A stretch of DNA of 64,000 bases from an uncultured bacterium. Its GTDB lineage: Bacteria > Hydrothermota > Tepidihabitantia > Tepidihabitantales > Tepidihabitantaceae. Position 1 is the stretch's first letter. The number at the start of each line of letters is the position of its first letter. The DNA lies in NCBI GenBank assembly GCA_964626075.1, contig CAZVDD010000018.1, positions 18,189 to 82,188 on the forward strand, given 5' to 3'. This document shows, one piece after another, positions 4,802 to 27,020 of this stretch. The position numbers were made by a program, and so were the translations under genes. Below the pieces are notes generated by a model. The model ran no database searches, was not told where the DNA came from, and saw only the letters and a program-made list of their open reading frames with translations.

Positions 4802-4804
4802 TTC

Positions 4805-5101: not shown

Positions 5102-5102
5102 C

Positions 5103-5927: not shown

Positions 5928-5928
5928 A

Positions 5929-6846: not shown

Positions 6847-6847
6847 C

Positions 6848-8210: not shown

Positions 8211-8687
8211 CTATTGGACAGGTTGAAAGAAACGTATATCGGTTATCGCACCCTCTCTTTTTGCCTTCGGTTTAAGCACTGCAACTACCCTCATCCCAAA
8301 GCAAAGCTCTTCCGACTTCACACCGCCCAGACGATGAACAAGGAAAGTTGATGCACCGTCAAGTTTAATCAACCCTACCAGTTCTGGCTGTTCGAGCCGT
8401 TTGCCATCGAGCCCAAGATAAACCACCGTCCAAGACTCAACTGTCCCGGTCGGCCCAACCGTTACCCAGTTATCAAGGTGTTCTAAACATCGTTCACAGA
8501 AAATTCTTCCCGGAACGAACACCAGCCCACATCGTTCACACTTTGTTCCTATGAACTGCCCTTTTTCTTTAAGCGTTCGGAAAAAACGCTCGCCACCTAG
8601 CCCCACCGTATAAAGGCTATCAACCGGCAACTCACCAAACCAGACCTTAGTCTGGCTAATCTTTTCATTGCGTTGTTTCAGCGCCAT
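8211..8687 (-). CDS. DUF35-type Zn-ribbon/OB-fold protein (thiolase/aldolase partner subunit), short form
   Basis: 158 aa with CERCGLVFVPGRIFCERC rubredoxin-like Zn ribbon followed by an OB-fold region; adjacent to thiolase-like genes. Confidence 0.75.
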   Translation of the reverse strand: MALKQRNEKISQTKVWFGELPVDSLYTVGLGGERFFRTLKEKGQFIGTKCERCGLVFVPGRIFCERCLEHLDNWVTVGPTGTVESWTVVYLGLDGKRLEQPELVGLIKLDGASTFLVHRLGGVKSEELCFGMRVVAVLKPKAKREGAITDIRFFQPVQ

Positions 8688-8700
8688 CTTACTCCTCCCT

Positions 8701-9300
8701 TTACACTGGCTTCCAGTAGCAGATATCGGTAATTGCCCCTTCCCGCTGCGCGGGCTCTTTCCAAACCGCCTTCACTTTCATACCAACGTACACCTTTTTG
8801 GGGTCCACCTCACCTAATAGGTGCATTATTCCCATCCCCTTTGTTGCACCATCAATCTCAATCACTGCGGGAATCTGTGGTTCTTTAATCCTTTTCATAT
8901 CCCAGGTTACATAACATAGCGAAAAAGTGTTCACTATACCTGTATCTTTGAGTTCCACCCATCCGTCGATATTACGGTAACACCATTCGCAAAAAAGCCG
9001 GGGCGGCACCATCACCCGGTGACATTTGTAACACCGCACACCCAAAATCTTTCCCTCTTTTAACCCGGCCAGATACCGACCTATTGCCACACCGGCATCC
9101 CAGCCGTACTTCGCGTCCGCCTTCCATCGTGTTGTAAGAACTTTGCCCTGCCTGAGCTCTTCGTCACTGAGACCGGTCCCCTGAAGCCCGCCTTCTAACT
9201 TTTGCTTACCGTCTTTCAGTATCTCTTGTCCGCCAACGCGACCGGGAGCAACTGGTTGGTAAATTTCCTTTCTTAGCTTTTTAACCTGTGCCATTTTCAC
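8701..9300 (-). CDS. DUF35-type Zn-ribbon/OB-fold protein with N-terminal extension, long form
   Basis: 199 aa; CYKCHRVMVPPRLFCEWC Zn ribbon plus OB region; C-terminus ends REGAITDI, paralogous to 8211-8687. Confidence 0.75.
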   Translation of the reverse strand: MKMAQVKKLRKEIYQPVAPGRVGGQEILKDGKQKLEGGLQGTGLSDEELRQGKVLTTRWKADAKYGWDAGVAIGRYLAGLKEGKILGVRCYKCHRVMVPPRLFCEWCYRNIDGWVELKDTGIVNTFSLCYVTWDMKRIKEPQIPAVIEIDGATKGMGIMHLLGEVDPKKVYVGMKVKAVWKEPAQREGAITDICYWKPV

Positions 9301-9303
9301 CTC

Positions 9304-10464
9304 CTATACTCCTACAACCACAACTGCTCCAACCTGCATTAAATCACCCCATGCTTGGGCAACGCCGCGCTTTACCTTTCGCGCCACCTGACGCTTTCCT
9401 GCCTCCCCCCTTAACTGCCAGAAAAGTTCTGCCACCTTCATCAAACCAGCAGCGGCTATTGGATTACCAACCCCGAGCAACCCACCTGAAGGACAAACTG
9501 GCAACTCACCATCACGCTGAGTAACACCGTCTACGGTAAGTTGCGGCGCCTCTCCTCTACCGCACAAAAGCAGCCCCTCCATGTGGTGCAGTTCTTTGTA
9601 ATCAAACGGGTCGTAAGGCTCGGCAATATGAATCTGATGACGTGGGTCAGTAACACCTGCCATCTTGTATGCCATCCTTGCTGCCTCTTCAACATAACGC
9701 GGATAACACAGGTCGCGATTTGTCCAGTAGGCGGTATCCAGGGACCAACCGACGCCCTCAATCCATACCGGTTTGTCGGTAACCCTTCGGGCAACAGTCT
9801 CGTTTGCCAGAATTACCGCCACTGCGCCATCCGAAACCGGGCTGACATCAAGCCTTTGTACCGGCCAGGCAAGAACTTCGGAGCTAAGGATATCATCCAG
9901 TGTAACCTTGCCGCCGAGTTGCGCTGCCGGATGGTCAAGAGCATTATTTTTGTTCTTCACCGCAACCAGGGCAATATCCTCTTTCCGTAATCCGTAGGTG
10001 GTCATATAGCGGTTCATCTCGAGCGCAAATATCCAAAGCAAATTTGGCTTTAAAGGTCGCTCGGTGGTGTGGTCAAAAATTGTAAGAAACGCCCCCTGGG
10101 GGTGAGGCTGGAAAGAGGACATCTTCTCCTCACACACCACAAGACAGGTATCGAAAACACCGGAAGCAACATGATACCACCCATGAGCAACGGCGAACAC
10201 TCCGGTACCGCCGCCCACATAACACCGCATATAGGGCTTTCCCCAGGCACCGGCACCCGGTGACAGATACTCACCTTTCATATGCACACCATCAAAAGTG
10301 TCCGGGGCGCTACCTAACACGACGCCGTCAATCTGGTCAAGCTTCATCCCGCAACTATCCAGCGCCATTTTTGTTGCATAGAAGGCAAGTTCCTGACCGG
10401 TCTCCTGCGCCCGCCGCACGAACTTTGTCATTCCCACACCAACGATTGCTACTCTATTCCCCAT
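9304..10464 (-). CDS. SCP-x/archaeal-type thiolase-like protein (acetyl-CoA C-acyltransferase or retro-aldolase family)
   Basis: 386 aa, MGNRVAIVGVGMTKFVRR... thiolase-fold N-terminus; candidate nucleophile Cys in MRCYVGGGTG; glycine-rich C-terminal GGLLGVGNPIAAAG. Confidence 0.8.
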   Translation of the reverse strand: MGNRVAIVGVGMTKFVRRAQETGQELAFYATKMALDSCGMKLDQIDGVVLGSAPDTFDGVHMKGEYLSPGAGAWGKPYMRCYVGGGTGVFAVAHGWYHVASGVFDTCLVVCEEKMSSFQPHPQGAFLTIFDHTTERPLKPNLLWIFALEMNRYMTTYGLRKEDIALVAVKNKNNALDHPAAQLGGKVTLDDILSSEVLAWPVQRLDVSPVSDGAVAVILANETVARRVTDKPVWIEGVGWSLDTAYWTNRDLCYPRYVEEAARMAYKMAGVTDPRHQIHIAEPYDPFDYKELHHMEGLLLCGRGEAPQLTVDGVTQRDGELPVCPSGGLLGVGNPIAAAGLMKVAELFWQLRGEAGKRQVARKVKRGVAQAWGDLMQVGAVVVVGV

Positions 10465-10473
10465 TGCTCCTCC

Positions 10474-11634
10474 TTAAACAGTTAAAATTGCAACGGCGAC
10501 ACTTGTCGTCGGAAGCCCACGCCAAGCGTGAACCAGCGCGGTTCGGGGGTTGGGCAGTTGATTCTTTCCACAAGCACCACGCAACTCTTGCACCGCCCAA
10601 TAGAACCGGGCAAGACCTGTCGCCTCGTAAAGATAACCCATCCCTAAGGCGCCACCCGACGAATTTACGGGCAAATTACCCTTCAATTCTGTCCGGCCCG
10701 ATTCAATCCATCCTCTCAACTCACCTTCACCCACCAGCCGCAATTCCACAAGGTGCTGCAACTCCTTGTAAGAGTAAGTATCATCGACCTCGGCAAAGTC
10801 AATCTCCTTGGCCGGGCACTGAATACCTGCATGCCGATAAGCCATATCCGCTGCCTTGGTAACAAAATCCTGTCTTTCCCAATTGCGGGACTCCAGACTG
10901 AAAGAGCCACTACACCATCCAACGCCACTCAGAAACACCGGTTTTGCTCCATTACTATACCTTTTCCGTAACCACGCCTCAGAAGCCAATACAACTACCA
11001 CCGCACCATCAACCGGCTGAGCGATATCAAGTTCGGAAAGCGGAAAAGCCACTATCGGTGAAGATCGGAAATCGTCGTCAGAAAGTCTTGCCGCCCGCCC
11101 GGCTAAAGGATTAGCAAGTGCATTAGCCCGGTTCTTCTTCACCACCGCTGCACAGTGCTCGCGGCTCAAACCAGAGCGCTGGAGAAACAGGTTCATCTCC
11201 AGCCCGGCAATAAAAATGTTGTTCAAACCAAGCGGCCGATTAAAAACCGGGTCCTGAGCGCAAACCGCCACCCCATCCGGTGTCAGGATGTTTGATGCCT
11301 TAGAGTGTGCCTCCACCACCGCCACATCGAACTCGCCCGTCATTATTTGAAGCCACGCCGCCGCAATCCCATGCAGCCCTTCGCCGGAAATGGTATGCAT
11401 CTGTTTGAGTGCTGCCCCCAGTTGGTCGGGCACATACTCATCAAATATGCTCGTTCCTTCATGGTAGTCCTCAGCGCAGGTTACAAAAGTATCCACATCG
11501 CGCCGCGGATCGATACCCGCATCCTCATAAGCCTTTACTGCCGCCTCAAACATCAGTTCCTTATAAGAAACATCGGGCGAGATGGAACGAAACTGGGTTG
11601 CGCCGATGCCGACAACCGCTACTTTATTTGTCAT
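10474..11634 (-). CDS. SCP-x/archaeal-type thiolase-like protein, paralog lacking an obvious nucleophile Cys at the equivalent position
   Basis: 386 aa, MTNKVAVVGIGATQFRSI...; the position equivalent to the nucleophile Cys reads TISGEG; C-terminal SSGGALGMGYLYEATG. Confidence 0.75.
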   Translation of the reverse strand: MTNKVAVVGIGATQFRSISPDVSYKELMFEAAVKAYEDAGIDPRRDVDTFVTCAEDYHEGTSIFDEYVPDQLGAALKQMHTISGEGLHGIAAAWLQIMTGEFDVAVVEAHSKASNILTPDGVAVCAQDPVFNRPLGLNNIFIAGLEMNLFLQRSGLSREHCAAVVKKNRANALANPLAGRAARLSDDDFRSSPIVAFPLSELDIAQPVDGAVVVVLASEAWLRKRYSNGAKPVFLSGVGWCSGSFSLESRNWERQDFVTKAADMAYRHAGIQCPAKEIDFAEVDDTYSYKELQHLVELRLVGEGELRGWIESGRTELKGNLPVNSSGGALGMGYLYEATGLARFYWAVQELRGACGKNQLPNPRTALVHAWRGLPTTSVAVAILTV

Positions 11635-11884: not shown

Positions 11885-13444
11885 GTGCATAAATCGCTAA
11901 TCCTTTCTACCATCAGCCTTCCCTTTCTGATACTTTTCCTGCTACTACCATCGCGTCGTTACAACACCGATGGCTTTCGGGTCCTCGCCACACTTCACCG
12001 GGTAACAGTCAGTCCTGAAGGCACTAGACAGTTTACCCCTCTTAACTGGCAAACCGCCTACCAGCAACCTTACTACTTCCGCCAGAATGTCCAAAAACAT
12101 TTTTTATTTCCTATTTACGCCTACACCGCCTTCCGCATCTTTCGACTGTTCCGATACCAAGACAACGGCGTCAAACCATTGCAAACTGCCAACGCCATTT
12201 CTGCCACCATTACCCTGCTGTTGTTTGCTTTTCTTTTCACAACTCACTCCTACCCGCTTTCCACCGTAATCATCGCAACCTTGGGACTGGGTTTATCGAG
12301 CGCCTTTGCCGCCCAGGCAACCAACATCGCCGAGGTAGTGCCCGCAACAACCCCCTTGACACTGGCGCTTATTCTTATTGAAAAAAGAAAACCGTTTATC
12401 GCGGCGATTTTTCTCGGCATCAGCGCCGCCTTTTACCTTTTGTCCCTGTTTGTTGTCCCTTTTCTCATTTTATTGTTTTTGGGCCGAACACCGCGCCGCA
12501 TCCCGCTCTCCCTTCTTATCATCCCGCCCATAACAACTCTTTTCATCTATTTAACTGTCCTTATCCCTGCCGGCAACAAAAACCTGCAGGACCTCCTGAC
12601 CGCGCTCTTCTTTTTACCGGAACAGGGCACATTTGGCGGATTCAAACTGTCGAATTCCATCTCTACCCCGCTCGGCTTTATATCCAGTATCCTTCCCGTA
12701 CTCCCCGAAAACTTCTCCGGTATCAAAACCGCACTTGCCACCCGAAACCCGCCCCCACTCCTGCTATTAACCTCAATCATCATTGGCATTCTACTTCTGA
12801 CCCTGCCACTGCTAACGGCGCACAAAAAAGTGCAACGAACACCGGGCATCGCCCTGCTCATTACCAGTCTGGTCACCGCCCTCTTCTGGGACCCCTATCA
12901 TCAGAAAATCTGGCTCTATGGAGTTATCGGCTTCTGGCTTGTTCTTGCCCATCTCCGCCATTTACGCCTCTTCATTTTACTTATCCTGTTTATATTGATC
13001 CCGCTTAACATCAACGCCCTCATCAAAAACCACCAACCAAACCGAAAATGGCAAACCGCACAAAAACTTGCTCGCTTTCTACTTTTTGAACAACACCCCG
13101 GAAACAAAAAAGTTGTATTTGGTAACTGGGAACCGGAATTTGACTACCTCACCGCCTTTCTGCCCGACACCTGCCTTATCTCAATACCCGACCTCATCCT
13201 TGAAATTAGAAGAGACTCCAGCCGATTCCATTCAACAATTGACTCCATCAAACTGAGTTGTCCGGCAGCCGCAGTCTATTTTGTCAACACCTTCAACCGC
13301 ACCAAACAACAGTTAGAAAAGTTATATGTTCACCGCCTTAAATTCCCCTATATCCTCACCTGGCTGGAGAACCAGCGCCCTTTTACCCAGCCCTTATGGC
13401 ATGACTCGTTAACCGGCACCACCCTCTACCAGCTCTCCAATTAA
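11885..13444 (+). CDS. Polytopic integral membrane protein, function unknown (possibly GT-C-like glycosyltransferase)
   Basis: 519 aa with more than 10 hydrophobic segments; GTG start; no recognisable catalytic motif. Confidence 0.5.
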   Translation: MHKSLILSTISLPFLILFLLLPSRRYNTDGFRVLATLHRVTVSPEGTRQFTPLNWQTAYQQPYYFRQNVQKHFLFPIYAYTAFRIFRLFRYQDNGVKPLQTANAISATITLLLFAFLFTTHSYPLSTVIIATLGLGLSSAFAAQATNIAEVVPATTPLTLALILIEKRKPFIAAIFLGISAAFYLLSLFVVPFLILLFLGRTPRRIPLSLLIIPPITTLFIYLTVLIPAGNKNLQDLLTALFFLPEQGTFGGFKLSNSISTPLGFISSILPVLPENFSGIKTALATRNPPPLLLLTSIIIGILLLTLPLLTAHKKVQRTPGIALLITSLVTALFWDPYHQKIWLYGVIGFWLVLAHLRHLRLFILLILFILIPLNINALIKNHQPNRKWQTAQKLARFLLFEQHPGNKKVVFGNWEPEFDYLTAFLPDTCLISIPDLILEIRRDSSRFHSTIDSIKLSCPAAAVYFVNTFNRTKQQLEKLYVHRLKFPYILTWLENQRPFTQPLWHDSLTGTTLYQLSN

Positions 13445-15877: not shown

Positions 15878-17437
15878 CTATTTCACCCGTATTACCTTGC
15901 CGGTAAAATTTTTACCGTCTGCCGCAACGATAATGTAATAAACCCCTTCGGGCAACTGCTGGCTCATTTCATCTCTGCCATCCCACATAAAACTGTACCC
16001 GCCCGTTAATCTGACCCCATTACTCAACACCCTTATCTTCCTGCCCGACTGGTCAAATATATTTATTAAAACAGGACGGTTTAAGCCGAAGATGTTAATT
16101 GTGGTCCTTTCTTTGAAGGCAAACGGAAAGCAACGGACCCATCCAGCACTTTTGTTTTCTGCTTGTTCAGTGATACCGGTCAAGCGGTTGGTGGAAAACC
16201 AGATTTTTGCTTTGCCCGAGCGCATATCCTGCCAGACGATATAGGCACAACCTTCACCATCAACCGCAATACTCGGGTCCCATTGCTGAACCGAGGGCAT
16301 TAAACTCACGGGTTCCCTTTGCTGCCAGGTGAGCCCAAAGTCAGTTGAACTTGTATAATAGATATTCCAGATTTGATTCTGCCTCTCGGCAATCATCAAG
16401 GCAGTATGGACTGTACCTTGACGGTCTATTGCCAATTTTGCACCCTGAGTAAACGAACTGTAAATCGTATCCAGTTCAGTTACTAAAACCTGTTCACCCC
16501 AGGAGTCGCCCTGAACAAAATAGGTTCTCGCCATTGTGACTGATTGGTTGCTGCCAGTTCTGCCGCCGGTGTAATCGGTAATTATGTGTATTTCATCAGC
16601 AACGATATGGGGCATCCGGCAGTAAGCAGAAAATGTGTCCAGTTGAAACCCGGGTGAAAAACTCCTGCCCCTGTCGGATGATTTATAGAAATGAGAATGG
16701 AGCACAATCTGACTGCCCTGACGGACGGGCGCATCCGCTACTATTAAATAGTGATTTGTTCCTGGTTGTACAAAAACATCCGGCGGATAGCAATTAAAAG
16801 AGACGGTGTCATCGTCGACTCGGACATCAGTTCCCCAGGTTCTACCCCCATCGGTTGAAACATCGGCATAAACCCTCAAGTATGAACTTCGCTGGTCGGT
16901 CCAGGCACAGAAAAGGTTGTCTGCAGTATCAATCGCCAGTTTGACCCAGCCCACCGGCACCATCGAAGGATTGTCATCAACCTGCACCGGGTCTGTCCAG
17001 GTTTCACCCATATCGGTTGAGCGAACAAAATGGATATGCCCCCGACTGCCATCGACCCGGTCAACATAAATCAGATATACGGTTCCGTCTCGTGCCACCT
17101 GCAAATCTGGATAACAGGCAAACCGGTTTCCCCGCCGAACAATGATATTTTCACTGAGCCAGGTTCTGCCACCATCAGTTGACCGCTGAAATGCAATATC
17201 ACTTCGCTGAACGGTTAAAGGCACCGAATCGTCCTCAAATGCCACATAGATGGGTTGAACGCCAGCAGTATCAGGACCAATCGCAATCTCGGCATGATAG
17301 CAGGCGTAGTTTACTCTATTCTTCCAGTCAACCCGCACCGCAGGAATAAAATCGGCTCGACTGAAATTGAACAGGAGTAAAATGATGGTAGAGAAGAGAA
17401 AACGATTAATCAGGGTATGTCTGTTATAGTTACTCAC
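15878..17437 (-). CDS. Secreted BNR/Asp-box repeat beta-propeller protein (sialidase-like fold) with T9SS-type C-terminal sorting domain
   Basis: Five SxDxGxTW/F Asp-boxes (STDGGRTW twice, STDMGETW, SSDRGRSF, STDFGLTW); N-terminal signal peptide; C-terminal roughly 80 aa resemble a T9SS sorting domain (...GVYYIIVAADGKNFTGKVIRVK). Confidence 0.7.
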   Translation of the reverse strand: MSNYNRHTLINRFLFSTIILLLFNFSRADFIPAVRVDWKNRVNYACYHAEIAIGPDTAGVQPIYVAFEDDSVPLTVQRSDIAFQRSTDGGRTWLSENIIVRRGNRFACYPDLQVARDGTVYLIYVDRVDGSRGHIHFVRSTDMGETWTDPVQVDDNPSMVPVGWVKLAIDTADNLFCAWTDQRSSYLRVYADVSTDGGRTWGTDVRVDDDTVSFNCYPPDVFVQPGTNHYLIVADAPVRQGSQIVLHSHFYKSSDRGRSFSPGFQLDTFSAYCRMPHIVADEIHIITDYTGGRTGSNQSVTMARTYFVQGDSWGEQVLVTELDTIYSSFTQGAKLAIDRQGTVHTALMIAERQNQIWNIYYTSSTDFGLTWQQREPVSLMPSVQQWDPSIAVDGEGCAYIVWQDMRSGKAKIWFSTNRLTGITEQAENKSAGWVRCFPFAFKERTTINIFGLNRPVLINIFDQSGRKIRVLSNGVRLTGGYSFMWDGRDEMSQQLPEGVYYIIVAADGKNFTGKVIRVK

Positions 17438-17892
17438 AGTTCACTCTTTGTGCCCTGCCGCTGCCAGTATATCAAGGTGCCAAGGGTGCCTTCCTTCTCC
17501 TTGACCAGGATGCAATACAACCCTTCATTCGCTTTTTCATCCTCTTTTATTTTCCGATAACTGTTTACTATTACCTGGTCAGAAAGTGAACTGCTGCATT
17601 CAACATCCAAAAACAGGTTTGCTACCCGCTCATCATAAAATTTCCGAACAACTGGTAACGAATCAGTTGTCCGAAAGACATAAAACCGGTTAATTTCTTT
17701 TTCGTCGGTTGAAGCAGAATAGTCAATTACACTGGCACCCGGATAGTTAAGTTCTGGCGGAAAATCGAGCAGGAAATCGCTCAATTGACTCTGACTTAGC
17801 CTGAACTTCTTTTCGACCTTTTTACTCGGGACGTTACTACAACTTAGCATAAGGATCGCACAAACGATTGGGACGATTACGGTGCCCTTCAT
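17434..17892 (-). CDS. Hypothetical lipoprotein
   Basis: 152 aa; signal peptide with lipobox-like LSCSN; precedes the BNR protein in the same orientation. Confidence 0.5.
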   Translation of the reverse strand: MKGTVIVPIVCAILMLSCSNVPSKKVEKKFRLSQSQLSDFLLDFPPELNYPGASVIDYSASTDEKEINRFYVFRTTDSLPVVRKFYDERVANLFLDVECSSSLSDQVIVNSYRKIKEDEKANEGLYCILVKEKEGTLGTLIYWQRQGTKSEL

Positions 17893-17981
17893 ATTGACTT
17901 TTTTCTCTTTCTTAAACCATCAAAGATAGGAAATTGTAAAATGACATTTGGAAATGTCAATATTAATTTGAAAGCACGCGG

Positions 17982-20534
17982 CTAACCGGCTAATAGCAAA
18001 CGAAGGCTGTTGCTTTCGCAATGAGGGCAGGCGCGTTCTTCGGGCTGGCCCGGTGTCCAGTGATGAGTTGATTCTTTGCCGCAGCGGAGGCATACAAACG
18101 ACATCTCACCGGCAGTCTTGGGCTCAGTTCGTACGGCTACCCTGGGAGGATTACGAAGAATCTGCTTTGTCTGCTCAATCTCCTCTGGTGTCACCGACGC
18201 CCTGAGCCTTTCCAGTTCCCCCATTGTTTTGACAAACCGCGGTGCCTGCGCCGCAGAAATCCACTCCAGTTGCAGCCTTTCCGGTCGAATCCCCCACGCC
18301 TCAAGTTTGTCCCATAGTTTTTCGACCCGACGCTGGGTCTGCCGGTTAGCATTGAGGTAGTGGCAGTCCGCATAGTGACACCCCGAAACAAGAACGACCG
18401 GGGCCCCGAGTGCAAATGCTTTGAGCACAAACTTTTCAGCAACGCGGGCGCTGCACATCGTTCGAATCAAAACCTGTGTGGGTGGGTACTGCGACCGTGT
18501 CAGCCCAACCGTATCTGATGCCGCATAGGAGCACCAGTGGCAGGCAAACACAATCGCTTTCGACTCGGGTTCTTCTGCTAGCGCCGCCTCAATCTGAGCA
18601 ATAATCTGTTCGTCCGTGAACTGATGTGCCTCAATCGCCTCAAACCGACACTCTGCCGCACAATTGCCACAGCCGGCACAGACGGCATCAATCGCCTTTG
18701 CCGGCGCACCCCGTTGCCACTCGACCGCTTTAAATGTACAGACCGGTGCGCACATGCCACAAGCACGGCACTTATCGGTTATAACCTCCACCGTATTGGG
18801 CTCTGCCGCCAGTGAACTTTGTGCCAAAAGCCGCGCCGCTCGCCCCGCCGCCGCACTTGCCTGTGTCACCGAATCCTTGACATCTTTTGGTCCTTCGGCA
18901 CACCCGGCATAAAAAACCCCGCGTACTGGCGAATCAACCGGTTGCAGTTTCGGGTGTGCCTCAAGAAGGAAACCTTCCGGATGGATTTGCAGCGCCATAA
19001 GTTGTTGAATCGGCTTGGTCTCAGGCCTTGGTTTGACTCCGGTCGCCAGCACCACCAGTTCCGCGATGTGTTCTTCAACCTTACCGGTTTCGGTGTTTTC
19101 CACATAGAGTTTTAGATTGCCCGTTGCTTTATCTTCAATCACTTCACCTGGAATCCCGCGAATATATTTGACACCGAGGCGCCGGGAACGCCACAACATC
19201 TCTTCAAACCCTTTACTGAAGGCGCGTAGGTCGATGTAGAAAACTTTGATGTCCATATCCGGGTAATGCTCTTTAAGCACCAGACTGTCTTTAATTGTGT
19301 TCATACAACAGATGTTGCTACAGTAGGGCGTACCCTGTTGCACACAGCGCGAGCCGACACACTGAATAAAGGCGATGCTGTCCGGGCGCCGCCGGTCACT
19401 CAGCCGGATGAGTTCACCGCCAGTTGGTCCTCCCGAGGATGCCAGTCGCTCAAACTCCATTGCCGTTATCACATTTGCTGCCCGACCATAGCCGAATTCG
19501 GCGCGTGGCAACGGGTCAAACGGCTCCATTCCGGTAGCAACGATAATTGCACCCACCTCAAAGTTGAACTCTTTGTCCTGAGCGTTCAAGTCAATGCACT
19601 TCTTTTCGCACGCCTGAGCACATTTGCCACAGGCAATGGGGTTTAAGCCAAGACAGTCATCGGGATTGAGTACATAAGCCGCCGGAATCGCCTGCGGGAA
19701 CGGCTGGTAAATCGCATGTCTCAACCCAAGCCCTAAATTAAACTCATCCGGAACCAGTTGCGGGCAAACCTGGGCACATTCGCCACAGGCGGTGCACTCC
19801 CGCTCATCAACAAATCGCGCCTTCTGCCGAACCGTTACCTTAAAGTCACCAACATGACCGGCAACTTCTTTGACCTCGGCAAGGGTCAGGAGTTTGATTT
19901 TCGGATGCCGACCGACATCCGCCATCTTGGGCGCAAGTATTCATATCGCACAATCCATCGTCGGATAGGTTTTGTGCAACTGCGCCATCAACCCACCGAG
20001 CGAAGGTTGACGCTCCACCAGATATACCTGATGACCCGCATCTGCCAGGTCAAGACTCGCCTGAATCCCGGCAACACCACCGCCAATTACCAGCACCGCA
20101 TCCTTTATGGGGAAACGACGCGGGCTAAGCGGTTTCAGTGCCCGTGCTTTTGCCACCGCCATTCGAACCAGACTGCACGCCTTTTTCGTTGCCCGCTCCG
20201 GCTCAAGGGCATGAACCCAGGAACACCCTTCCCGGATGTTCACCATCTCCATAAGAAACGGATTCAAACCCGCCTGTGCCACGCAGGCACGAAAAGTAGG
20301 CTCGTGCATCCGTGGTGTGCAAGCCGCCACCACCACCCGATTGAGGTTGAATTCGGCAATCGCCTTCTGAATCTCCTTCTGCCCTGGTTCAGAGCAGTTG
20401 TAGAGGCTGGTTACCGCATAAACCACATCGGGTAAGGTTTTGACGTAATTCACCACCTCTTCGACATTGACGGTGCCGGCGATGTTGGTGCCGCACCGGC
20501 AGACAAACACGCCGATTCGCGTCTCTTGACTCAT
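17982..20534 (-). CDS. hdrA: Heterodisulfide reductase subunit A-like flavoprotein fused to a C-terminal MvhD/FlpD domain; selenoprotein with an in-frame UGA (Sec) at 19941-19943
   Basis: Track ORFs 19941..20534 and 17982..19925 are in the same frame, separated only by TGA plus five sense codons. N-terminal part has an HdrA-type Cys cluster ([10 protein letters not shown]), FAD Rossmann [19 protein letters not shown], and ...[15 protein letters not shown]...; the downstream part has ferredoxin CxxCxxCxxxCP motifs and an MvhD domain ([12 protein letters not shown]...RTMCSARV...[11 protein letters not shown]). Confidence 0.8.
19902..19921 (-). promoter_or_regulatory. Putative bacterial SECIS hairpin about 20 nt 3' of the in-frame UGA
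   Basis: mRNA reads CGGAUG-UCGGUCGG-CAUCCG: perfect 6-bp stem and 8-nt loop containing GGU, at bacterial-type spacing from the UGA. Confidence 0.5.
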
Positions 20535-20543
20535 CGCCTTATT

Positions 20544-22079
20544 CTACTCCTTATCGCTTATAAAATCAATTAAATTCACAATCCGCAGCGCATCTTTGTT
20601 ACCCCGGCTCAATTGGGCGCAGCGGAGATGAATTTCACACCTACTGCAGCCGGTAATAAGAGTTTCCGCATTTACCGCCTGCCACTCCTGCAAGCGCCGA
20701 TCCTGAAGCAGTCTTACCGCCGCTCCACATTCGAGCCACGATGTGCCCCCACAACACAACGCTTCGGTACGGTTATGCTCCATCTCAACCAGCTCAACCC
20801 CGTTGACTTCGGTAATCAACTGACGCGGCGCATCTTCTACCCCTAAATGTCTACTCAATCGGCACGGGTCATGGTAGGTAACCCGCAATCGCTTCCCATT
20901 GCCAATGGGCTTAAACCCGTGCTCCAGTAAGAACTCACTTATGTGTCTTAATCTCAACCCCAACAATCGGGTTCCGGCAATACGCGGGTAATCCAGTTTG
21001 AATGTCCGCAAACACTCCGGGCAGAGAAATACCACCTCTTTCACCCCTGCATCCTGCAATCTATCTAAGTTGTGCCGGGCAAGTTTCCTTACGGTACGGA
21101 CATCACCCATCCATAACAAATCGTGTCCGCAACAACGCTCATCAGAAAGCACCACCGGCTCAATTCCCAATCGGTTCATAATCCGTACCGCATTACGCAA
21201 TGTTTCAACTGGATTCACCCCCAATTCCTTAAACAGCACATCAAAATAAGGTGCGCATCCCGTCCAGAGGGCGGTTTCGCCTTTATCAACAACTCGCAGT
21301 TCAGCACCAACCCAGTCCCGCCGATTCTGAATCAAAGCCGTTTTTGCCATCATTCTACCCAACGTTTGCACAACACCATCGTGTGCCAGCACCGGCTGTG
21401 TTCCCTCCTGAAATGCTAGCGCCCTTAACCGCAACATCTCTTCCGCAATACTCTTTCCAGTGGGGCAAACTGTTTTACACATATCACACCCTAAACAGGC
21501 ATAAATGACCCTCGTATTCACAACCGTATTTTCGGTCAACGCCTTTTGCAGCAACCGCCGCGGTGAGAAACCAAGACCGGTTCGGGCGACCGGACACACT
21601 CCGCTACACCTACCACAGTCAATACATACAAAATCACTTTGTTTGACAACCTTTTCAAAATCTTTATCACCGCACTCCTGCTCTGAGTTAGCCGGTTGTT
21701 TGTTGAGAAACTTCTCTTTCACTCCCGCTGTTCTCACGAACAAATCATTAAACGAAACTGGTCCAGACACGGTAACGAATTGAACTTGTCCAGGATTAAA
21801 CCCCATCAGCTTTAAAATCTGCCGGCTCATTTCAACCTGTTTTCGGGCATTTTGTGCACCAATCTCGTGCCGGCACTCCTGCTCCAAACAACCGAAAAGT
21901 ACAACCCGGTCGGCACCATACTCAAAGGCACGCAATATCGAACCAGTTCCCACCTGACCGATACAGGTTACCCTCCGATACCCGAACCCGTTTTTCAACA
22001 AAAAATCTGCTGACACCTGCCCGGAAACCCGCTCACAGATGAAAGCAAAGCTTCTGATTAAAGGCGACTTACTTTCCAT
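20544..22079 (-). CDS. FlpD/MvhD-like domain fused to HdrC-like 2x[4Fe-4S] ferredoxin and HdrB-like CCG domains (HdrD-like fusion)
   Basis: N-terminal MvhD-like region (FICERVSG...RVTCIGQV...VLFGCLEQECRH), CIDCGRCSGVCP and CLGCDMCKTVCP clusters, then CCGHD and CCGG cysteine-rich (CCG) motifs. Confidence 0.75.
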   Translation of the reverse strand: MESKSPLIRSFAFICERVSGQVSADFLLKNGFGYRRVTCIGQVGTGSILRAFEYGADRVVLFGCLEQECRHEIGAQNARKQVEMSRQILKLMGFNPGQVQFVTVSGPVSFNDLFVRTAGVKEKFLNKQPANSEQECGDKDFEKVVKQSDFVCIDCGRCSGVCPVARTGLGFSPRRLLQKALTENTVVNTRVIYACLGCDMCKTVCPTGKSIAEEMLRLRALAFQEGTQPVLAHDGVVQTLGRMMAKTALIQNRRDWVGAELRVVDKGETALWTGCAPYFDVLFKELGVNPVETLRNAVRIMNRLGIEPVVLSDERCCGHDLLWMGDVRTVRKLARHNLDRLQDAGVKEVVFLCPECLRTFKLDYPRIAGTRLLGLRLRHISEFLLEHGFKPIGNGKRLRVTYHDPCRLSRHLGVEDAPRQLITEVNGVELVEMEHNRTEALCCGGTSWLECGAAVRLLQDRRLQEWQAVNAETLITGCSRCEIHLRCAQLSRGNKDALRIVNLIDFISDKE

Positions 22080-23934
22080 CGCTACCGGTAAAAACTGCCG
22101 CCGCTAATTTGAAAGAACTCTGGAGTGCACCGCTCGGACAAACAGGTAAACAGTTACCGCATCCCCGACAGCGCTGGTTGTCAACGACCGCAACCTGAAT
22201 ACCTGAATACCACACCTGCCTGCTAATCGCCTCATGGGGACAAATCTCAACACACCTTCCACATCCGCGACACAACTCCTTCTCTACTTTAACAACCAAA
22301 GGCTGAATTACCGCTGGAATTGTCTCGTTCCCTCTGCCGACATTAACTTGTAACTCCACCGCCAGTTCTTCAACATTATCGGGCAAAACAGTTTCCAGGG
22401 AATGAATCCGCATTATCACCGAATCAGATTTGTCAACAGTCTGGACTACCACCTGATGTTTCGGACAGGTCCGATGGCAGCGAATACATTCCCCACAAAA
22501 ACCACACCGTAAACAGCGCTCCGCCTCCTGAACCGCCTGCTCCGGTGTTAACGGTGCCTCAACCTCGGCAAAGATGTTTCGCTTTTCGGGCGCCAGGAGT
22601 CCTAACTTTACCCTGCTCTTGGGCACCGCGGTTAGAACCGGCACCTGAACTTCAAGTTGCACTTCAGAAACTGCTACCGTCTCATCTTGGTTGCTGATAA
22701 ATTTATGAATCGCCTTTGCACCCCGATGACCACTGGCGATGGCATCAATCACCGTTGCCGGGCCACTTGCCGCATCGCCCCCGACAAAAACCCCAACGGG
22801 CAATTGATTTACATCCTTTTCCACCTTCTGGCCCAGTGCGGTGATAACCCAATTAGCACCAATCACAAAAAGCGAATCCGGAATCGGTACCGGTTTTCTC
22901 CGCCCCGACTCATCGGGCGCGCCCAGCGTATTTCGGACACATTTCAATCCGGTAACCTTGCCATCCTTATAAACAAACTCTACCGGCTGGGTCAGATACT
23001 CAATTCTGACACCCTCTGCCTCTGCCTGGGAAATCTCCTCTTCATCGGCAGGCATTTCTGTTCTGCTTCGGCGGTAAACAATCCAAACCTCTTCAGCCCC
23101 TAACCGCTTTGCCACTCTTGCGGCGTCAATCGCCGAATTTCCACCGCCAATCACCAGCACCCTACCAAGCAAATTTTTAATATCACCGGAAAACGCCCTT
23201 TTCAAAAATGAAAGCGCATCAATCACTCCGGTAAGTTCATCCTCCAAAGCCAGCCCCAGAGTCAAGCTTTTCTGACAACCCGGAGCATAAAACACCGCCG
23301 CATAACCATCTTTTAGAAGTTGTGCCGGCTCGTCAATTTTTGTTCTGGTAAAAATTTCCACTCCCAATCCGAGAATGGAGTCAATCTCCTGTTCAATAAC
23401 CGACCGAGGCAGACGAAAAGGCGGAATACCCCATAACAGCATACCACCAGGTTTTTCCTGTGCCTCAAAAATCGTCACCTGATACCCTAACCGAATTAGG
23501 TCGTTTGCCGCAGTCAAACCCGCCGGACCAGCACCGACAACCGCCACGCGTTGCGGCTGTTTAACGGTGTCTTTTGGTAATGCCGCCTGGGGTTGATTGA
23601 CCGCATAATCGGCGATGAAACGTTTCAGGGCTCTGATTGCGACCGGTTCATCCAATTCCGCCCGACGGCACTCTTTCTCACAGGGATGGGTACAAACGCG
23701 GCCGCAGATTCCAGGAAAAGGATTGGTCTGTCGCACCACTTCCAGCGCCTGGACAAATTTGCCGGCGGCAATTAACCCAACATAAGCCTTGACATTAACA
23801 CCAGCCGGACAGGCAACCCGACAGGGCGACGGTGGCGCCGGCACGATTTGAAACTCCCGCTCCCCAACTCGTAAACTCGCCCCCTTCCCATAAAGCATCT
23901 CCTTGAAACTCAGCCGTTCCTTTGCCGTGTTCAC
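22069..23934 (-). CDS. GltD/NfnB/SudA-family NAD(P)H-dependent FAD oxidoreductase with C-terminal extra [4Fe-4S] ferredoxin domains
   Basis: N-terminal CRVACPAGVNV...ICGRVCTHPCEKEC Fe-S motif, two Rossmann motifs (VAVVGAGPAGLTAANDL; VLVIGGGNSAIDAA), C-terminal CRGCGRCVEICP/CRGCGNCLPVCP. Confidence 0.8.
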   Translation of the reverse strand: MNTAKERLSFKEMLYGKGASLRVGEREFQIVPAPPSPCRVACPAGVNVKAYVGLIAAGKFVQALEVVRQTNPFPGICGRVCTHPCEKECRRAELDEPVAIRALKRFIADYAVNQPQAALPKDTVKQPQRVAVVGAGPAGLTAANDLIRLGYQVTIFEAQEKPGGMLLWGIPPFRLPRSVIEQEIDSILGLGVEIFTRTKIDEPAQLLKDGYAAVFYAPGCQKSLTLGLALEDELTGVIDALSFLKRAFSGDIKNLLGRVLVIGGGNSAIDAARVAKRLGAEEVWIVYRRSRTEMPADEEEISQAEAEGVRIEYLTQPVEFVYKDGKVTGLKCVRNTLGAPDESGRRKPVPIPDSLFVIGANWVITALGQKVEKDVNQLPVGVFVGGDAASGPATVIDAIASGHRGAKAIHKFISNQDETVAVSEVQLEVQVPVLTAVPKSRVKLGLLAPEKRNIFAEVEAPLTPEQAVQEAERCLRCGFCGECIRCHRTCPKHQVVVQTVDKSDSVIMRIHSLETVLPDNVEELAVELQVNVGRGNETIPAVIQPLVVKVEKELCRGCGRCVEICPHEAISRQVWYSGIQVAVVDNQRCRGCGNCLPVCPSGALQSSFKLAAAVFTGSDGK

Positions 23935-24497
23935 GCCCGCCTCTTTTCTTTTCCAACCTGATACCCCTTCTCCAGCGCAATAAGATTTTTTTCCAGGAGT
24001 CGCGCCGGCAGTATGTCCTGAACCGCTTTAATTAGAGCCTCCTTGGGCACAATGCCGGTCACCGCAACCAAAAATCCAAGCATCACCATATTGGCATACA
24101 TCCGATTCCCAAGCCCCTCGGCAATTCTTGTCGCCGGAATGGCAAACTCCTTGACCCGGCCCAGGTGGTTATGCGGTCGTACCAGATTTTCCTCCCAGAT
24201 GAGCACGCCGTCATCCTTCAATGTGGGCTCAAACTTTTCATAGGCTTCTTGGGACATTGCCACTAAAATGTCCGGCGCTGTCAGATAAGGATAAAGCACC
24301 CGCTCCTCAGAAATAATCAACTGTGCCGAACAGGCACCCCCTCGCGCCTCGGGCCCGAAACTTTGCGTCAAGGTGGCATACTTATTATCATAAAGCGTTG
24401 CAGCACGGCCTAACACCATCCCCATCATTATAATGCCCTGGCCGCCAAATCCGGAAAGTTTAATCTCCATCTTCCATTGGTCCTTGATACGGGACAA
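23931..24497 (-). CDS. korC: 2-oxoacid:ferredoxin oxidoreductase gamma subunit
   Basis: 188 aa with GFGGQG pyruvate/ketoisovalerate oxidoreductase gamma-domain signature. Confidence 0.8.
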   Translation of the reverse strand: MSRIKDQWKMEIKLSGFGGQGIIMMGMVLGRAATLYDNKYATLTQSFGPEARGGACSAQLIISEERVLYPYLTAPDILVAMSQEAYEKFEPTLKDDGVLIWEENLVRPHNHLGRVKEFAIPATRIAEGLGNRMYANMVMLGFLVAVTGIVPKEALIKAVQDILPARLLEKNLIALEKGYQVGKEKRRA

Positions 24498-25350
24498 ACT
24501 TTTCGCCCACAGTCGTGCGCAAAAATTGGTTCATAATCTCGAGGTAAGTGGGCTGTTGCTTCTGAACAAACCTTCCAACAACGATTGGACCTTGATAGGT
24601 TATTTCGCACTCCCGGGTGTCAATATCGTTCCTGACGACCGACCTTTCCTTATAATACTTCACAATCTCAAGGCCCGAGCCCAACTGATTGCGCCGGCCA
24701 TAAACCGTCGGGCAGGGCGAAATCACCTCAACAAAACTGAATCCCGAGTGCATTAAAGCCTCTTTGAATGCTTGTGTCATCTGTCGGACATGAAGCACAG
24801 TCCAGCGTGCCACATAGGTTGCCCCGCAGGAGTCAACAAGAAATGGAATGTTAAACGGGTGCTCAAAACTGCCGTAAGGCGCCGTCGTCAACTTCGCGCC
24901 CTGGGGTGTCGTTGGGCCAAACTGACCGCCCGTCATCGCATAGTTGAAATTGTTTACACAGATTACGGTCAAATCCATATTGCGCCGCGCTGCATGAATA
25001 AGGTGGTTACCGCCAATCGACACCAAATCACCGTCGCCGGAGATAATCACCACCTTCAGTTGCGGATTGCCCAATTTTAAACCAATCGCAAACGGTATCG
25101 CCCGGCCATGGGTGGTGTGAAACGAATCAAGGTTTACATAACCAGCGGCGCGGCCCGTGCAACCGATACCGGACACAACTACCAAATCCTGCCGGGGAAT
25201 GGCACTCTCCCGCACCGCCGTCAGAAAAGAGTTCAAAACGATACCCAGACCACAGGTCGGACACCAGATATGGGGTATGCGGTCCACCCTTAACAGGTCG
25301 TCAAGCGGGTGCTGTTCCAGCCCGGCGATATTGACCGTCGCTTCACTCAT
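24460..25350 (-). CDS. korB: 2-oxoacid:ferredoxin oxidoreductase beta subunit (TPP-binding)
   Basis: GIGCTGRAAGY..GDGD TPP-binding motif, 296 aa. Confidence 0.85.
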   Translation of the reverse strand: MSEATVNIAGLEQHPLDDLLRVDRIPHIWCPTCGLGIVLNSFLTAVRESAIPRQDLVVVSGIGCTGRAAGYVNLDSFHTTHGRAIPFAIGLKLGNPQLKVVIISGDGDLVSIGGNHLIHAARRNMDLTVICVNNFNYAMTGGQFGPTTPQGAKLTTAPYGSFEHPFNIPFLVDSCGATYVARWTVLHVRQMTQAFKEALMHSGFSFVEVISPCPTVYGRRNQLGSGLEIVKYYKERSVVRNDIDTRECEITYQGPIVVGRFVQKQQPTYLEIMNQFLRTTVGEKFVPYQGPMEDGD

Positions 25351-26501
25351 CGCGCACTCTCCATTATCGCCTCAAAGATGTCTTTCGGGTCATGAACCCA
25401 ACCACCACAATGGGGAACATGTCGCGTCTGCGCCCAACCCCCCACCACCCTTTGCAGCTCCAGATACACCTGACCCAAATTTATCTCGGGCATAACAAAC
25501 GCCTTTACTCTCTTTGCCAGTTGTTTAATCTTACTTTCCGGGAAGGGCCAGACCGTAATCAACCGCAACATCCCGACCTTCACACCGCGTGCCCGGGCGT
25601 CTTCAATCGCCTTGAACGCCACCCGGGCACTGATTCCGTAAGCGACAACAACCACCTCGGCGTCGTTTAGTTGGTACTCATCTACGATAACTATTTTCTC
25701 CCGATTCTTGCGGATTTTTTCAACCAGATGGGTAACGCACCAGTTCTGACACTCGGCATTTATCACCGGATAACCCCGTTCATCATGGGTCAATCCGGTA
25801 ATATGAATCCGGTAATCCTTTCCTGCCCGGACCATCGCGGGTACACCATCCTCCTCGGGTTTAAAAGGGCGATACTGTTCTCGCGGACCACGATACCACC
25901 TTCTTGGTACCAAACGGATTTTATCTGGCTCCGGGATGACCACCTTTTCGGTCATATGGCCTACACATTCATCCATCATAAACAAAACCGGGACTCGGAA
26001 TTGCTCGGCGAAATTAAAACAGGTAATCGTCAAATCGAAACACTCCTGTGGTGAAGCCGGTGCCAGAGCGATAATCTCATAATCCCCGTGCGAACCCCAC
26101 CGGGCTTGCATCATATCTTGCTGCCCGGTTAAAGTGGGTAATCCAGTTGAAGGACCACCCCGCTGGACATTAACTACGACACAGGGGGTTTCAGTCATCA
26201 CCCCGAGCCCGATATTCTCCTGCATCAACGAAAAACCAGGACCCGAGGTAACAGTCATCGCTTTAGTTCCTGCCCATGCTGCGCCCAGCACCGCCGCAAT
26301 TGAAGCCAGTTCATCTTCCATCTGAATAAATGTACCGCCAACCATCGGGAACCGCTGGGCAATTCGTTCCGCAATCTCGGTGGAAGGGGTTATTGGGTAC
26401 CCGGCAAAAAAACGACAGCCAGCCGCAATCGCCCCCTCAGCACAGGCGTGGTCACCATCAAGAAAATGTGCTCCGGTCAGCACAACATCACTGTTCCTCA
26501 C
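25347..26501 (-). CDS. korA: 2-oxoacid:ferredoxin oxidoreductase alpha subunit
   Basis: 384 aa, FAGYPITPSTEI... canonical alpha-subunit N-terminus. Confidence 0.85.
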   Translation of the reverse strand: MRNSDVVLTGAHFLDGDHACAEGAIAAGCRFFAGYPITPSTEIAERIAQRFPMVGGTFIQMEDELASIAAVLGAAWAGTKAMTVTSGPGFSLMQENIGLGVMTETPCVVVNVQRGGPSTGLPTLTGQQDMMQARWGSHGDYEIIALAPASPQECFDLTITCFNFAEQFRVPVLFMMDECVGHMTEKVVIPEPDKIRLVPRRWYRGPREQYRPFKPEEDGVPAMVRAGKDYRIHITGLTHDERGYPVINAECQNWCVTHLVEKIRKNREKIVIVDEYQLNDAEVVVVAYGISARVAFKAIEDARARGVKVGMLRLITVWPFPESKIKQLAKRVKAFVMPEINLGQVYLELQRVVGGWAQTRHVPHCGGWVHDPKDIFEAIMESAR

Positions 26502-26787
26502 CTGTGCCCCCGGTCATTACCTTCTCGGATTCCTGGTCCGGCGTTGTCCAGATGGCGAATTCGGCACAGATAGCAGTACACAATCCGCAATCAACGCAAC
26601 GCTCAGGGTATTTGACAATCGGAGGGTGATAACCCCGCCGATTGAAATCGGTTGACGCTTCAAGCACCTGTTTCGGACAAAAGGTAATACAGAAACCGCA
26701 TCCCTTGCATCGCTCAATCAGGATGTGAACAATACCGTGGGGTGGCTTCTTTTGCTCCGCATCTAAAGGTTTGCGCCACAGTTTCAT
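26488..26787 (-). CDS. korD: 2-oxoacid:ferredoxin oxidoreductase delta subunit (2x[4Fe-4S] ferredoxin)
   Basis: 99 aa with CKGCGFCITFCP and CVDCGLCTAICA clusters; first gene of the string. Confidence 0.8.
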   Translation of the reverse strand: MKLWRKPLDAEQKKPPHGIVHILIERCKGCGFCITFCPKQVLEASTDFNRRGYHPPIVKYPERCVDCGLCTAICAEFAIWTTPDQESEKVMTGGTGEEQ

Positions 26788-27020
26788 CGATGTAGAAAGT
26801 TGATTATAAAAGTTAAATTTGGAGGGTCAAGAAAATCTGCCGGCAGGCACAAATCACAAAAACGTTCTTGGGGGAAAAGCCCGCTAACTGATAAATTCGA
26901 TAACTCGTTTTATGGCATAACATTCTTACATTTCAGTATGACTCTATCTCATCCTTGACTTCGCTTCGCACCTTCCTAAAATAAATTTGGTCGGATATAA
27001 GACCGAACTTTGTGACCGAT

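Follow-up and report, generated by a model that had tools for sequence, protein, structure and literature searches.

Organization of the hdrA2 locus

Within the window, that is, the whole stretch of 64,000 nucleotides that was analysed, the minus strand carries a complete hdrA2 gene with a single in-frame UGA, preceded by further genes of the same operon. The features considered here, with the evidence for each in brackets, are the following.

17982..20534, minus strand: complete hdrA2 gene, 850 codons, one in-frame UGA (translation; Pfam, NCBIfam and 5odc matches)
18018..18092, minus strand: C-terminal zinc-ribbon-like tail, CxxC...CxxC, residues 815-839 (sequence)
18210..18554, minus strand: fused MvhD/FlpD domain of the Cys type, residues 661-775 (PF02662, E=3e-39; 5odc_D)
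19902..19921, minus strand: candidate SECIS hairpin, with 5' arm 19921-19914, GGUC loop 19913-19910 and 3' arm 19909-19902 (fold and comparison)
19926..19940, minus strand: five codons, I-L-A-P-K, linking the UGA to the ATG at which gene callers let a second gene begin (conservation in 77 TGA-type loci)
19941..19943, minus strand: UGA codon 198, putatively read as Sec, the U of CxxU (5odc_A Cys197, 9sfi_A residue 197, relatives)
19950..19952, minus strand: Cys195 codon (TGT), partner in the CxxU redox motif (invariant Cys in 77 of 77 TGA-type loci)
19980..20096, minus strand: FAD-binding Rossmann segment, residues 147-185, with GGGVAG at 150-155 (Pfam)
20544..22079, minus strand: upstream partner of 511 aa, a fusion of MvhD-like, HdrC-like 2x[4Fe-4S] and HdrB-like CCG parts (Pfam FlpD, Fer4_8, CCG x2)
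22069..23934, minus strand: GltD/NfnB-like NAD(P)H-binding iron-sulfur flavoprotein of 621 aa, same operon (Pfam Fer4_20, Pyr_redox_2, Fer4 x2; NCBIfam PRK12771)
23931..26501, minus strand: gamma, beta and alpha genes of a 2-oxoacid:ferredoxin oxidoreductase, the head of the operon (Pfam POR, TPP_enzyme_C, POR_N, PFOR_II)

The hdrA2 frame consists of two open reading frames, 20534..19941 (197 aa) and 19925..17982 (647 aa), which are linked by the TGA at 19943..19941. Around this codon the minus strand reads ACC TAT CCG ACG ATG GAT TGT GCG ATA TGA ATA CTT GCG CCC AAG ATG GCG GAT GTC GGT CGG CAT CCG AAA, with five sense codons separating the TGA from the downstream ATG. The original prediction, which had described two same-frame ORFs parted by a TGA and I-L-A-P-K and had placed the UGA at about residue 198 behind the FAD Rossmann motif, was thus confirmed on the minus-strand sequence in both respects. 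Its further claim that HdrA continues across the UGA also held: residues 3-651 of the merged protein matched HdrA (5odc_A) with E=1.4e-218, and the merged protein likewise matched MvhD (5odc_D) with E=7e-34. Pfam placed Pyr_redox_2, FAD_oxidored and NAD_binding_8 at residues 147-208 and further detected FlpD, FAD and Fer4 domains in the merged product. When scored with Cys in place of Sec, the merged product aligned with positions 1-776 of the 777 in the NCBIfam HdrA2 profile NF040770 at 1121.4 bits (cutoff 1100), and it alone covered this profile end to end above the curated cutoff. The HdrA part comprises about residues 1-655 and is followed by the MvhD/FlpD domain and the zinc-ribbon-like tail; the 13 closest homologues all share the cysteines of the tail, and PF09723 is precomputed for the homologues P0005 and P0011.

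The UGA codon lies at the Cys/Sec column of HdrA

In the alignment, the UGA stands opposite Cys197 of 5odc_A and opposite residue 197 of Methanococcus maripaludis HdrA (9sfi_A), which is a non-standard 'X' in the structure sequence. According to the 9SFI paper, this residue is Sec197, bonded to a Cys as a selenylsulfide between the FAD and cluster A3, and CxxU is the published Sec motif of HdrA. As all 106 full-length homologues carry Cys at the same column, the UGA falls on a Cys/Sec position, as had been anticipated. The 14 closest database proteins all start with MADVG, indicating that the same truncation was made in them. An HdrA2 with 94% identity is encoded in GenBank JBBISL01.

Related loci gave the same picture at the codon level. 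Among 80 related species genomes, covering WOR-3, Chloroflexota and Desulfobacterota, the codon is TGA in 77 and TGT in three, and in every one of these loci the N-terminal HdrA part ends exactly at the UGA-position codon, in frame. A domain boundary in homologues, one of the outcomes that the original prediction had set against itself, was seen in none of the 80. Furthermore, the amino acids encoded by codons +1 to +5 after the TGA are invariant across the 77 TGA-type loci (I, L, G/A, P, K), and these positions make use of three Ile, five Leu, four Gly, four Pro and two Lys codons. Because the amino acids are kept while synonymous sites vary freely, this segment is evidently translated as part of HdrA.

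The window itself uses UGA as a regular stop. TGA ends 22 of its 68 long reading frames, and a reassignment of UGA in the genetic code was ruled out on this ground. Other pairs of same-frame ORFs joined by a TGA in the window are off-frame to real genes or intergenic, and the hdrA junction (200 + 652 codons) was the only convincing one.

A hairpin downstream of the UGA codon is conserved with it

A hairpin begins 19 nt after the UGA. The original prediction gave it a 6-bp stem and an 8-nt loop; its existence was confirmed, but the fold differs slightly: 8 bp (CGGAUGUC / GGCAUCCG, one of them a U-G pair) close a 4-nt GGUC loop. The 7-bp core common to relatives pairs 19920-19914 with 19909-19903. 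The hairpin has a fold energy of -12.5 kcal/mol and the surrounding 62-nt segment one of -14. Taken by itself, the window hairpin does not stand out statistically against shuffles (z = -0.61; 48 of 200 shuffles fold equally well), and its significance derives solely from the comparison with relatives. A longer element with a lower stem that includes the UGA was considered and rejected, as the 3-bp helix proposed by the single-sequence MFE fold was unsupported by RNAalifold on 78 sequences.

The published bSECIS consensus describes an upper stem of 4-16 bp capped by a loop of 3-9 nt that has a G in its first two positions, with G or U commonly next, 16-37 nt between UGA and apical loop, and an MFE of at most -7.5 kcal/mol. 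The apical loop of the window hairpin lies 27 nt from the UGA (alignment columns 16-42), which bears out the bacterial SECIS spacing originally proposed, and its fold energy is within the published limit. Its 4-nt loop and 8-bp stem likewise agree with the consensus; 6-7 bp of the stem are kept in 78 TGA-type genes, and the GGUC loop, with its leading G, is found in all 78. The apical loop of E. coli fdhF also contains GGUC, and its G23 and U24 contact SelB. Rfam gave no match at the gathering threshold for the whole window and appears to lack a model for this SECIS; at E<=10 on 19800-20050 it returned only a meaningless match to Xist.

The prediction that relatives would retain the hairpin was borne out, with covariation, in the 78 TGA-type genes. 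Codons +8 to +12 of the TGA-type loci are almost fixed at the nucleotide level: GAT in 76 of 77, then only GTC or GCC, GGT in 77 of 77, only CGA or CGG, and CAT in 77 of 77. Stem pair 41-48 covaries (UA in 40 genes, CG in 30, UG in 8) and is broken in none of the 78, a Val/Ala change being coupled to a synonymous change of the Arg codon. As a control, we used 72 distinct Cys-type genes that encode the same MMDVGRHP peptide. In these genes the synonymous codons are all used and the hairpin is lost. Joining the controls with the three TGT-type genome loci to a set of 75 Cys-type genes, we found all seven stem pairs formed in 4 of 75, as compared to 72 of 78 TGA-type genes, and the GGTC loop in 9 of 75 versus 78 of 78; the mean MFE was -7.8 for the Cys-type and -11.2 for the TGA-type genes. 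Hence, the hairpin structure is kept by nucleotide-level selection, and only in UGA-type genes. The resulting 18-nt element, GGAUGYC-GGUC-GRCAUCC, is near-invariant in hdrA2 genes from three phyla or more, whose proteins are only 55-60% identical.

Alternative readings of the UGA codon

Each check named in the original prediction that could be carried out spoke for it. Given the position of the codon and the conservation of the hairpin, the TGA is almost certainly a selenocysteine codon accompanied by its RNA insertion hairpin, as far as sequence comparison can tell, and we consider it very likely that the two ORFs form one gene for a Sec-containing HdrA2 in which HdrA is fused to MvhD. One alternative is that the UGA is a true stop, HdrA being made as an N-terminal Fe-S/FAD fragment of 197 aa and a remainder of 647 aa that starts at the downstream ATG. 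This is how the locus is annotated: as the original prediction had expected, every public gene call found (JGI, ENA, NCBI, Logan) yields two genes, of 197 and about 647 aa, the latter named 'hydrogenase iron-sulfur subunit' or 'heterodisulfide reductase subunit A', and an in-frame ATG is indeed available close after the UGA. However, the Met of this ATG is equally conserved in the unsplit Cys-type proteins, and the five codons that would be left untranslated keep their amino acids strictly in 77 species while changing freely at synonymous sites. Moreover, a split at this point would fall within the CxxC/U motif and divide the FAD domain, and the SECIS-like hairpin accompanies the TGA only, which makes a genuine stop very improbable.

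An equally slim chance is left to readthrough that does without selenium, for example by a near-cognate Cys- or Trp-tRNA, in an organism with no working Sec machinery and with a hairpin that merely stimulates the event. In its favour, searches of the 64-kb window and of about 9.5 kb flanking its start yielded no tRNA-Sec, selA, selB or selD; the flanking part contains only housekeeping genes, among them ribosomal genes, FabH and EF-G, and SelA, SelB and SelD domains were absent from every ORF scanned. Against it, the hairpin has the particular loop (GGUC) and spacing that SelB-dependent SECIS elements show, and cultured lineages known to be rich in selenoproteins, such as Syntrophobacteraceae and Desulfobacterales, carry the same element. 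In lineages that abandon the TGA, moreover, it is replaced by TGT and the hairpin disappears. Sec-to-Cys reversions fall in Desulfobulbales and Dehalococcoidia. A recent pseudogene or an error of sequencing or assembly has nothing in its favour except the stop inside a conserved gene and can be dismissed with near certainty, as five assemblies made independently for this organism from different samples (L001-L005) agree in the TGA and its context, the TGA recurs in 77 other species, and strong purifying selection acts on both halves.

Proposed decoding and partners of HdrA2

If the UGA is read as selenocysteine, UGA codon 198 would not be treated as a stop during translation. The mRNA hairpin, with its 7-8 bp stem and GGUC apical loop, would work as a bacterial SECIS element, presumably by binding the Sec-specific elongation factor SelB in complex with Sec-tRNA(Sec), and SelB would then deliver selenocysteine at the UGA. 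Translation would subsequently run on through the hairpin, whose nucleotides would encode D-V-G-R-H-P and act as recoding signal at once. Once the protein has folded, Sec198 and Cys195 are predicted to constitute a CxxU pair beside the electron-bifurcating FAD, where they may have a redox role, Sec198 occupying the site of Sec197 in M. maripaludis HdrA and of Cys197 in Cys-type HdrA. The physiological partners of HdrA2 are probably the products of the adjacent genes, namely the HdrCB-like, GltD-like and 2-oxoacid:ferredoxin oxidoreductase proteins; the HdrCB-like gene lies directly upstream of hdrA2 in 69 of the 80 related loci.

Relation to known Sec-HdrA proteins and SECIS elements

The original prediction regarded Sec-HdrA as rare in bacteria, which did not hold up: sixteen bacterial examples with the CxxU motif were already known in 2006 (Zhang, Romero and Gladyshev, PMC1794560), and of the 80 closest species genomes found, 77 have the TGA. 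With bacterial Sec-HdrA on record since then, the window gene is a new, mis-annotated member of the known Sec-HdrA family, whose genes are regularly broken in two by gene callers, and not a new kind of selenoprotein. It shares with the proteins of Deltaproteobacteria and Clostridia (PMC1794560) the in-frame UGA in hdrA and the downstream stem-loop, but differs from them in its host, which belongs to a lineage related to candidate division WOR-3, and in its operon. Whereas the 2006 operon combines glpC, hdrA, frhD, frhG and frhA, that is, a hydrogenase (PMC1794560), the genes next to the window hdrA2 encode a 2-oxoacid:ferredoxin oxidoreductase and a GltD-like protein.

With the Sec-HdrA of M. 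maripaludis and M. jannaschii (COG1148; 9SFI), the window protein shares the fold, the UGA column at residue 197 and a CxxU motif by the bifurcating FAD, and we regard it as a bacterial counterpart of the methanogen HdrA with Sec197. Several differences set the two apart. The archaeal SECIS lies outside the coding region and has another structure, whereas the candidate element described here is located inside the coding sequence right after the UGA, as in bacteria; M. maripaludis HdrA in the 9SFI complex is not fused to MvhD; and CoM-S-S-CoB, which the archaeal protein reduces, would not be expected as a substrate in the window bacterium. The order of domains, HdrA followed by MvhD, is that of HdrA2 as defined by NF040770, which is named after Methanosarcina acetivorans HdrA2. 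The named HdrA2 homologues retrieved are of the Cys type, however, while the window protein has a putative Sec at the CxxC position and carries the zinc-ribbon-like tail in addition. As in the bSECISearch model and in E. coli fdhF, the stem-loop is positioned just 3' of the UGA in the coding sequence and its loop starts with GG-U. Compared to this archetype, the stem is short and perfect (7-8 bp), with neither a bulged U nor a conserved lower stem that includes the UGA.

Implications for WOR-3 and related lineages

In the literature searched on WOR-3 and selenocysteine, a report of selenoproteins in the WOR-3 lineage was not confirmed. We tentatively propose, at somewhat less than even confidence, that Sec decoding extends to the WOR-3 candidate phylum and that a near-invariant SECIS is common to the hdrA2 genes of at least three phyla, with the implications that follow. 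The sharing of the element at 55-60% identity suggests either very ancient retention or transfer between phyla of a ready-made Sec-hdrA2 cassette, and further suggests that in this HdrA2 subfamily Sec, rather than Cys, is the usual form.

General knowledge of selenoproteins is unchanged by the window gene. If it encodes one selenoprotein, a selenium dependence of these organisms would be implied. For WOR-3, Anaerolineae and many MAGs of sulfate reducers, the split of the gene disrupts both the assignment to families and the reconstruction of metabolism. Relatives with an identical UGA and hairpin include Syntrophobacteraceae and the cultured Desulfobulbus elongatus, Desulfosarcina variabilis and Desulfocarbo indianensis, in which the element is open to testing.

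A single hdrA2 frame runs through an in-frame UGA

As the original prediction held, two ORFs in the same frame are parted by a TGA inside hdrA at about residue 198. The TGA (19943..19941, minus strand) is in frame with both ORF 20534..19941 (197 aa) and ORF 19925..17982 (647 aa), and translation through it gives a merged frame of 850 codons with the UGA as codon 198. On the minus strand, the codons TAT CCG ACG ATG GAT TGT GCG ATA precede the TGA, which is followed by ATA CTT GCG CCC AAG and then by ATG GCG GAT GTC GGT CGG CAT CCG. In Pfam searches the merged product showed 4Fe-4S motifs besides an FAD Rossmann segment, and its C-terminal part matched the MvhD/FlpD domain. Its residues 3-651 matched HdrA of Methanothermococcus thermolithotrophicus (5odc_A, E=1.4e-218) and residues 655-776 matched MvhD (5odc_D). 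Only when the two ORFs were joined did the NCBIfam HdrA2 model (NF040770, HdrA-MvhD fusion) give an above-cutoff, end-to-end match (1121 bits vs a cutoff of 1100, profile 1-776 of 777). The MvhD domain is followed by a CxxC...CxxC zinc-ribbon tail (residues 815-839). In this zinc-ribbon-like tail, coded at 18018-18092 (minus strand), the cysteines do not vary among the closest, WOR-3-like homologues; the tail is seemingly absent in deltaproteobacterial relatives, where matches end near residue 590 of 647.

The UGA occupies a Cys/Sec column

The alignment to Methanococcus HdrA that had been proposed as a check places the UGA on a Cys/Sec column: opposite it stand Cys197 of 5odc_A (DCSIC197ILAPKM) and residue 197 of 9sfi_A, a non-standard 'X'. 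9SFI is the Hdr-Vhu-Fwd structure of Methanococcus maripaludis, whose authors place Sec197 between FAD and cluster A3, in a bond with a cysteine, and call its exact role unresolved. The published Sec motif of HdrA, CxxU, reads C-A-I-U in our gene.

The expectation that such genes are easily mis-annotated as two was borne out. Gene calls are split likewise, at an identical TGA, in five independent assemblies of the same organism. The 14 closest database proteins (78-98% identity, 645-656 aa, covering 76% of the query; one named candidate division WOR-3) all start M-A/V-D-V/A-G-R-H-P and are therefore cut at the same place. The next 106 homologues are full length (804-865 aa, ~60% identity), and 106/106 carry Cys at the UGA column.

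When relatives were scanned at the DNA level with each species represented by a single genome, 80 loci were recovered, from WOR-3, from Anaerolineae and other Chloroflexota, and from many Desulfobacterota; cultured species among them include Desulfocarbo indianensis, Desulfobulbus elongatus and Desulfosarcina variabilis. The homologous codon is TGA in 77 loci; the other three, in Desulfogranum japonicum, Desulfobulbus rhabdoformis and a Dehalococcoidia MAG, have TGT. In every one of the 80, the N-terminal HdrA part is in frame with this codon and stops precisely there. A reassigned UGA is excluded, as TGA terminates 22 of the window's 68 long frames, and the recurrence of the TGA in the five assemblies and the related loci excludes a sequencing error or pseudogene.

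The codons that follow contradict the idea that HdrA is really made as two polypeptides. Across the 77 TGA loci, the residues encoded at +1 to +5 stay I, L, G or A, P and K, yet they are spelled with 3 different Ile, 5 Leu, 4 Gly, 4 Pro and 2 Lys codons, a pattern that indicates purifying selection on a translated peptide and thus excludes a true stop with an untranslated spacer. Moreover, the Met taken as the 'start' is just as conserved in Cys-type proteins, which are not split.

A conserved SECIS-like hairpin is tied to the UGA

For the D, V/A, G, R, H stretch at +8 to +12, conservation in the same 77 loci extends to the nucleotides (GAT 76/77, GTC or GCC only, GGT 77/77, CGA or CGG only, CAT 77/77), and these frozen codons coincide exactly with a hairpin. 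A hairpin starting about 20 nt downstream had been predicted and is present; the proposed 6-bp stem with 8-nt loop was not, since ViennaRNA folds 19921..19902 (minus strand), starting 19 nt past the UGA, into 8 bp, including one U-G pair, with a GGUC tetraloop. As a single sequence the hairpin does not stand out (MFE -14 kcal/mol for the 62-nt segment, z = -0.61; 48/200 shuffles fold equally well). Its conservation in relatives, named beforehand as a test, is clear in an alignment of 78 TGA-type genes: the GGUC loop is invariant, and the stem pair at columns 41-48 covaries (UA 40, CG 30, UG 8) and is broken in 0/78, the Val-to-Ala change (GUC to GCC) always being paired with a synonymous Arg change, CGA to CGG.

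In the published bacterial SECIS consensus, the apical loop has 3-9 nt and sits on a stem of 4-16 bp, a G occurs within the loop's first two positions (usually as G[G|U]), the loop lies 16-37 nt from the UGA, and the MFE is <= -7.5 kcal/mol. With a 4-nt GGUC loop, an 8-bp stem (7 conserved) and -12.5 kcal/mol, the hairpin agrees on 4/4 counts, and its 27 nt from UGA to loop confirm the bacterial spacing claimed for it. A search of the window against Rfam returned no family matching the hairpin.

As a control, Cys-type genes were retrieved by fully degenerate back-translation of DCSIC(I/V)LGPKMMDVGRHP, so that their synonymous sites were unconstrained by the search. The 72 distinct sequences (75 with the three TGT-type genome loci) used varied codons for Asp (GAT 39, GAC 33), Val (GTG 49, GTA 10, GTC 9, GTT 4), Gly (GGA 28, GGG 18, GGC 16, GGT 10), Arg (CGT 27, CGC 24, CGA 11, CGG 8, AGA 2) and His (CAT 45, CAC 27). 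The complete 7-pair stem was found in 4/75 Cys-type vs 72/78 TGA-type genes, and the GGTC loop in 9/75 vs 78/78. TGA-type genes coding the identical MDVGRHP peptide read GAT GTC GGT CGR CAT in 15/15 cases. The hairpin is thus tied to the UGA and not to the peptide.

In the TGT locus of D. rhabdoformis DSM 8777 (L077:3971-4051), the sequence GGATGT-GGGACG-ACATCC keeps 6/7 stem pairs and has lost the GGUC loop; this remnant resembles a fossil SECIS that outlasted a change from Sec to Cys. The TGA persists in other Desulfobulbus genomes (L016, L022, L036, L055).

Readthrough of the UGA without selenium is unlikely: the loop and spacing of the hairpin are specifically of the SelB type, and lineages dropping the TGA go to TGT and lose the hairpin. 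The Cys/Sec column, the translated codons and the UGA-linked hairpin together lead us to judge the original reading, a probable Sec-containing HdrA, right; we infer from these sequence features that selenium would be incorporated at the UGA and that SelB would bind the hairpin. No SelA, SelB or SelD domains were found in the ORFs scanned within the window, its only tRNAs are tRNA-Glu and tRNA-Leu, and the ~9.5 kb beyond its start hold housekeeping genes only.

Operon context and novelty

The hdrA2 gene is the last large gene of an operon:

17434-26800, minus strand: operon, tightly packed, with overlaps of 4-38 nt

Its genes encode, in order, a ferredoxin-like protein (99 aa), 2-oxoacid:ferredoxin oxidoreductase (OFOR) alpha/beta/gamma, a GltD/NfnB-like NAD(P)H flavoprotein, an MvhD-HdrC-HdrB(CCG) fusion, Sec-HdrA2 and an unassigned 152-aa protein. 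Gene order is identical in a WOR-3 MAG (L006), and an HdrCB-like gene lies upstream of hdrA2 in 69/80 loci. The operon would encode a flavin-based module, electron-bifurcating or confurcating, through which a disulfide-type acceptor is connected with ferredoxin and NAD(P)H; CoM-S-S-CoB is an unlikely substrate in a bacterium. This OFOR and Hdr-like module differs from the hydrogenase-linked context described for Sec-HdrA. The neighbours at 20544-22079 and 22069-23934 match NCBIfam NF045663 'diclust_near_Sec', a pyridine nucleotide-disulfide oxidoreductase/dicluster-binding protein family, below cutoff (E=7.6e-19 and 2.4e-51), each covering a different half of the profile, as if a protein fused elsewhere were split here.

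Sec-HdrA had been thought rare in bacteria, which does not hold: 16 bacterial examples, 7 of them in Syntrophobacter fumaroxidans, were catalogued in 2006 (PMC1794560), and current reviews include HdrA among the selenoprotein families, giving CxxU as its motif. Across phyla, hdrA2 genes have a nearly identical 18-nt SECIS in common. This sharing, the WOR-3-related host lineage (as far as our literature search reached) and the operon context are new in a narrow sense only, and the main use of the finding is annotation correction.

Other features of the window

At the Pfam thresholds used, no family was assigned to the ORFs at 11885-13444 (plus strand, 519 aa), 57142-59328 (minus, 728 aa), 59830-60678 (minus, 282 aa), 50961-51617 (minus, 218 aa) and 17434-17892 (minus, 152 aa). 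The ribosomal protein cluster S10...S8-L6 (~420-8000, minus strand) ends after L6; tRNA-Glu(CTC) at 424-500 and FabH-like genes follow, and the usual continuation L18, S5, L30, L15, secY is absent there. At 8211-11634 (minus strand), two tandem thiolase-like genes (386 aa each) precede two tandem DUF35/OB_ChsH2 genes, resembling the archaeal-type thiolase/HMG-CoA synthase/DUF35 complex. Type IX secretion hallmarks at 15878-17437, 41244-42368 and 42435-46436, comprising a 1333-aa C25 (gingipain-like) peptidase and a 519-aa BNR protein, each with a FlgD_ig C-terminal domain, and a PorV-like protein, fit an FCB-group or WOR-3 host.
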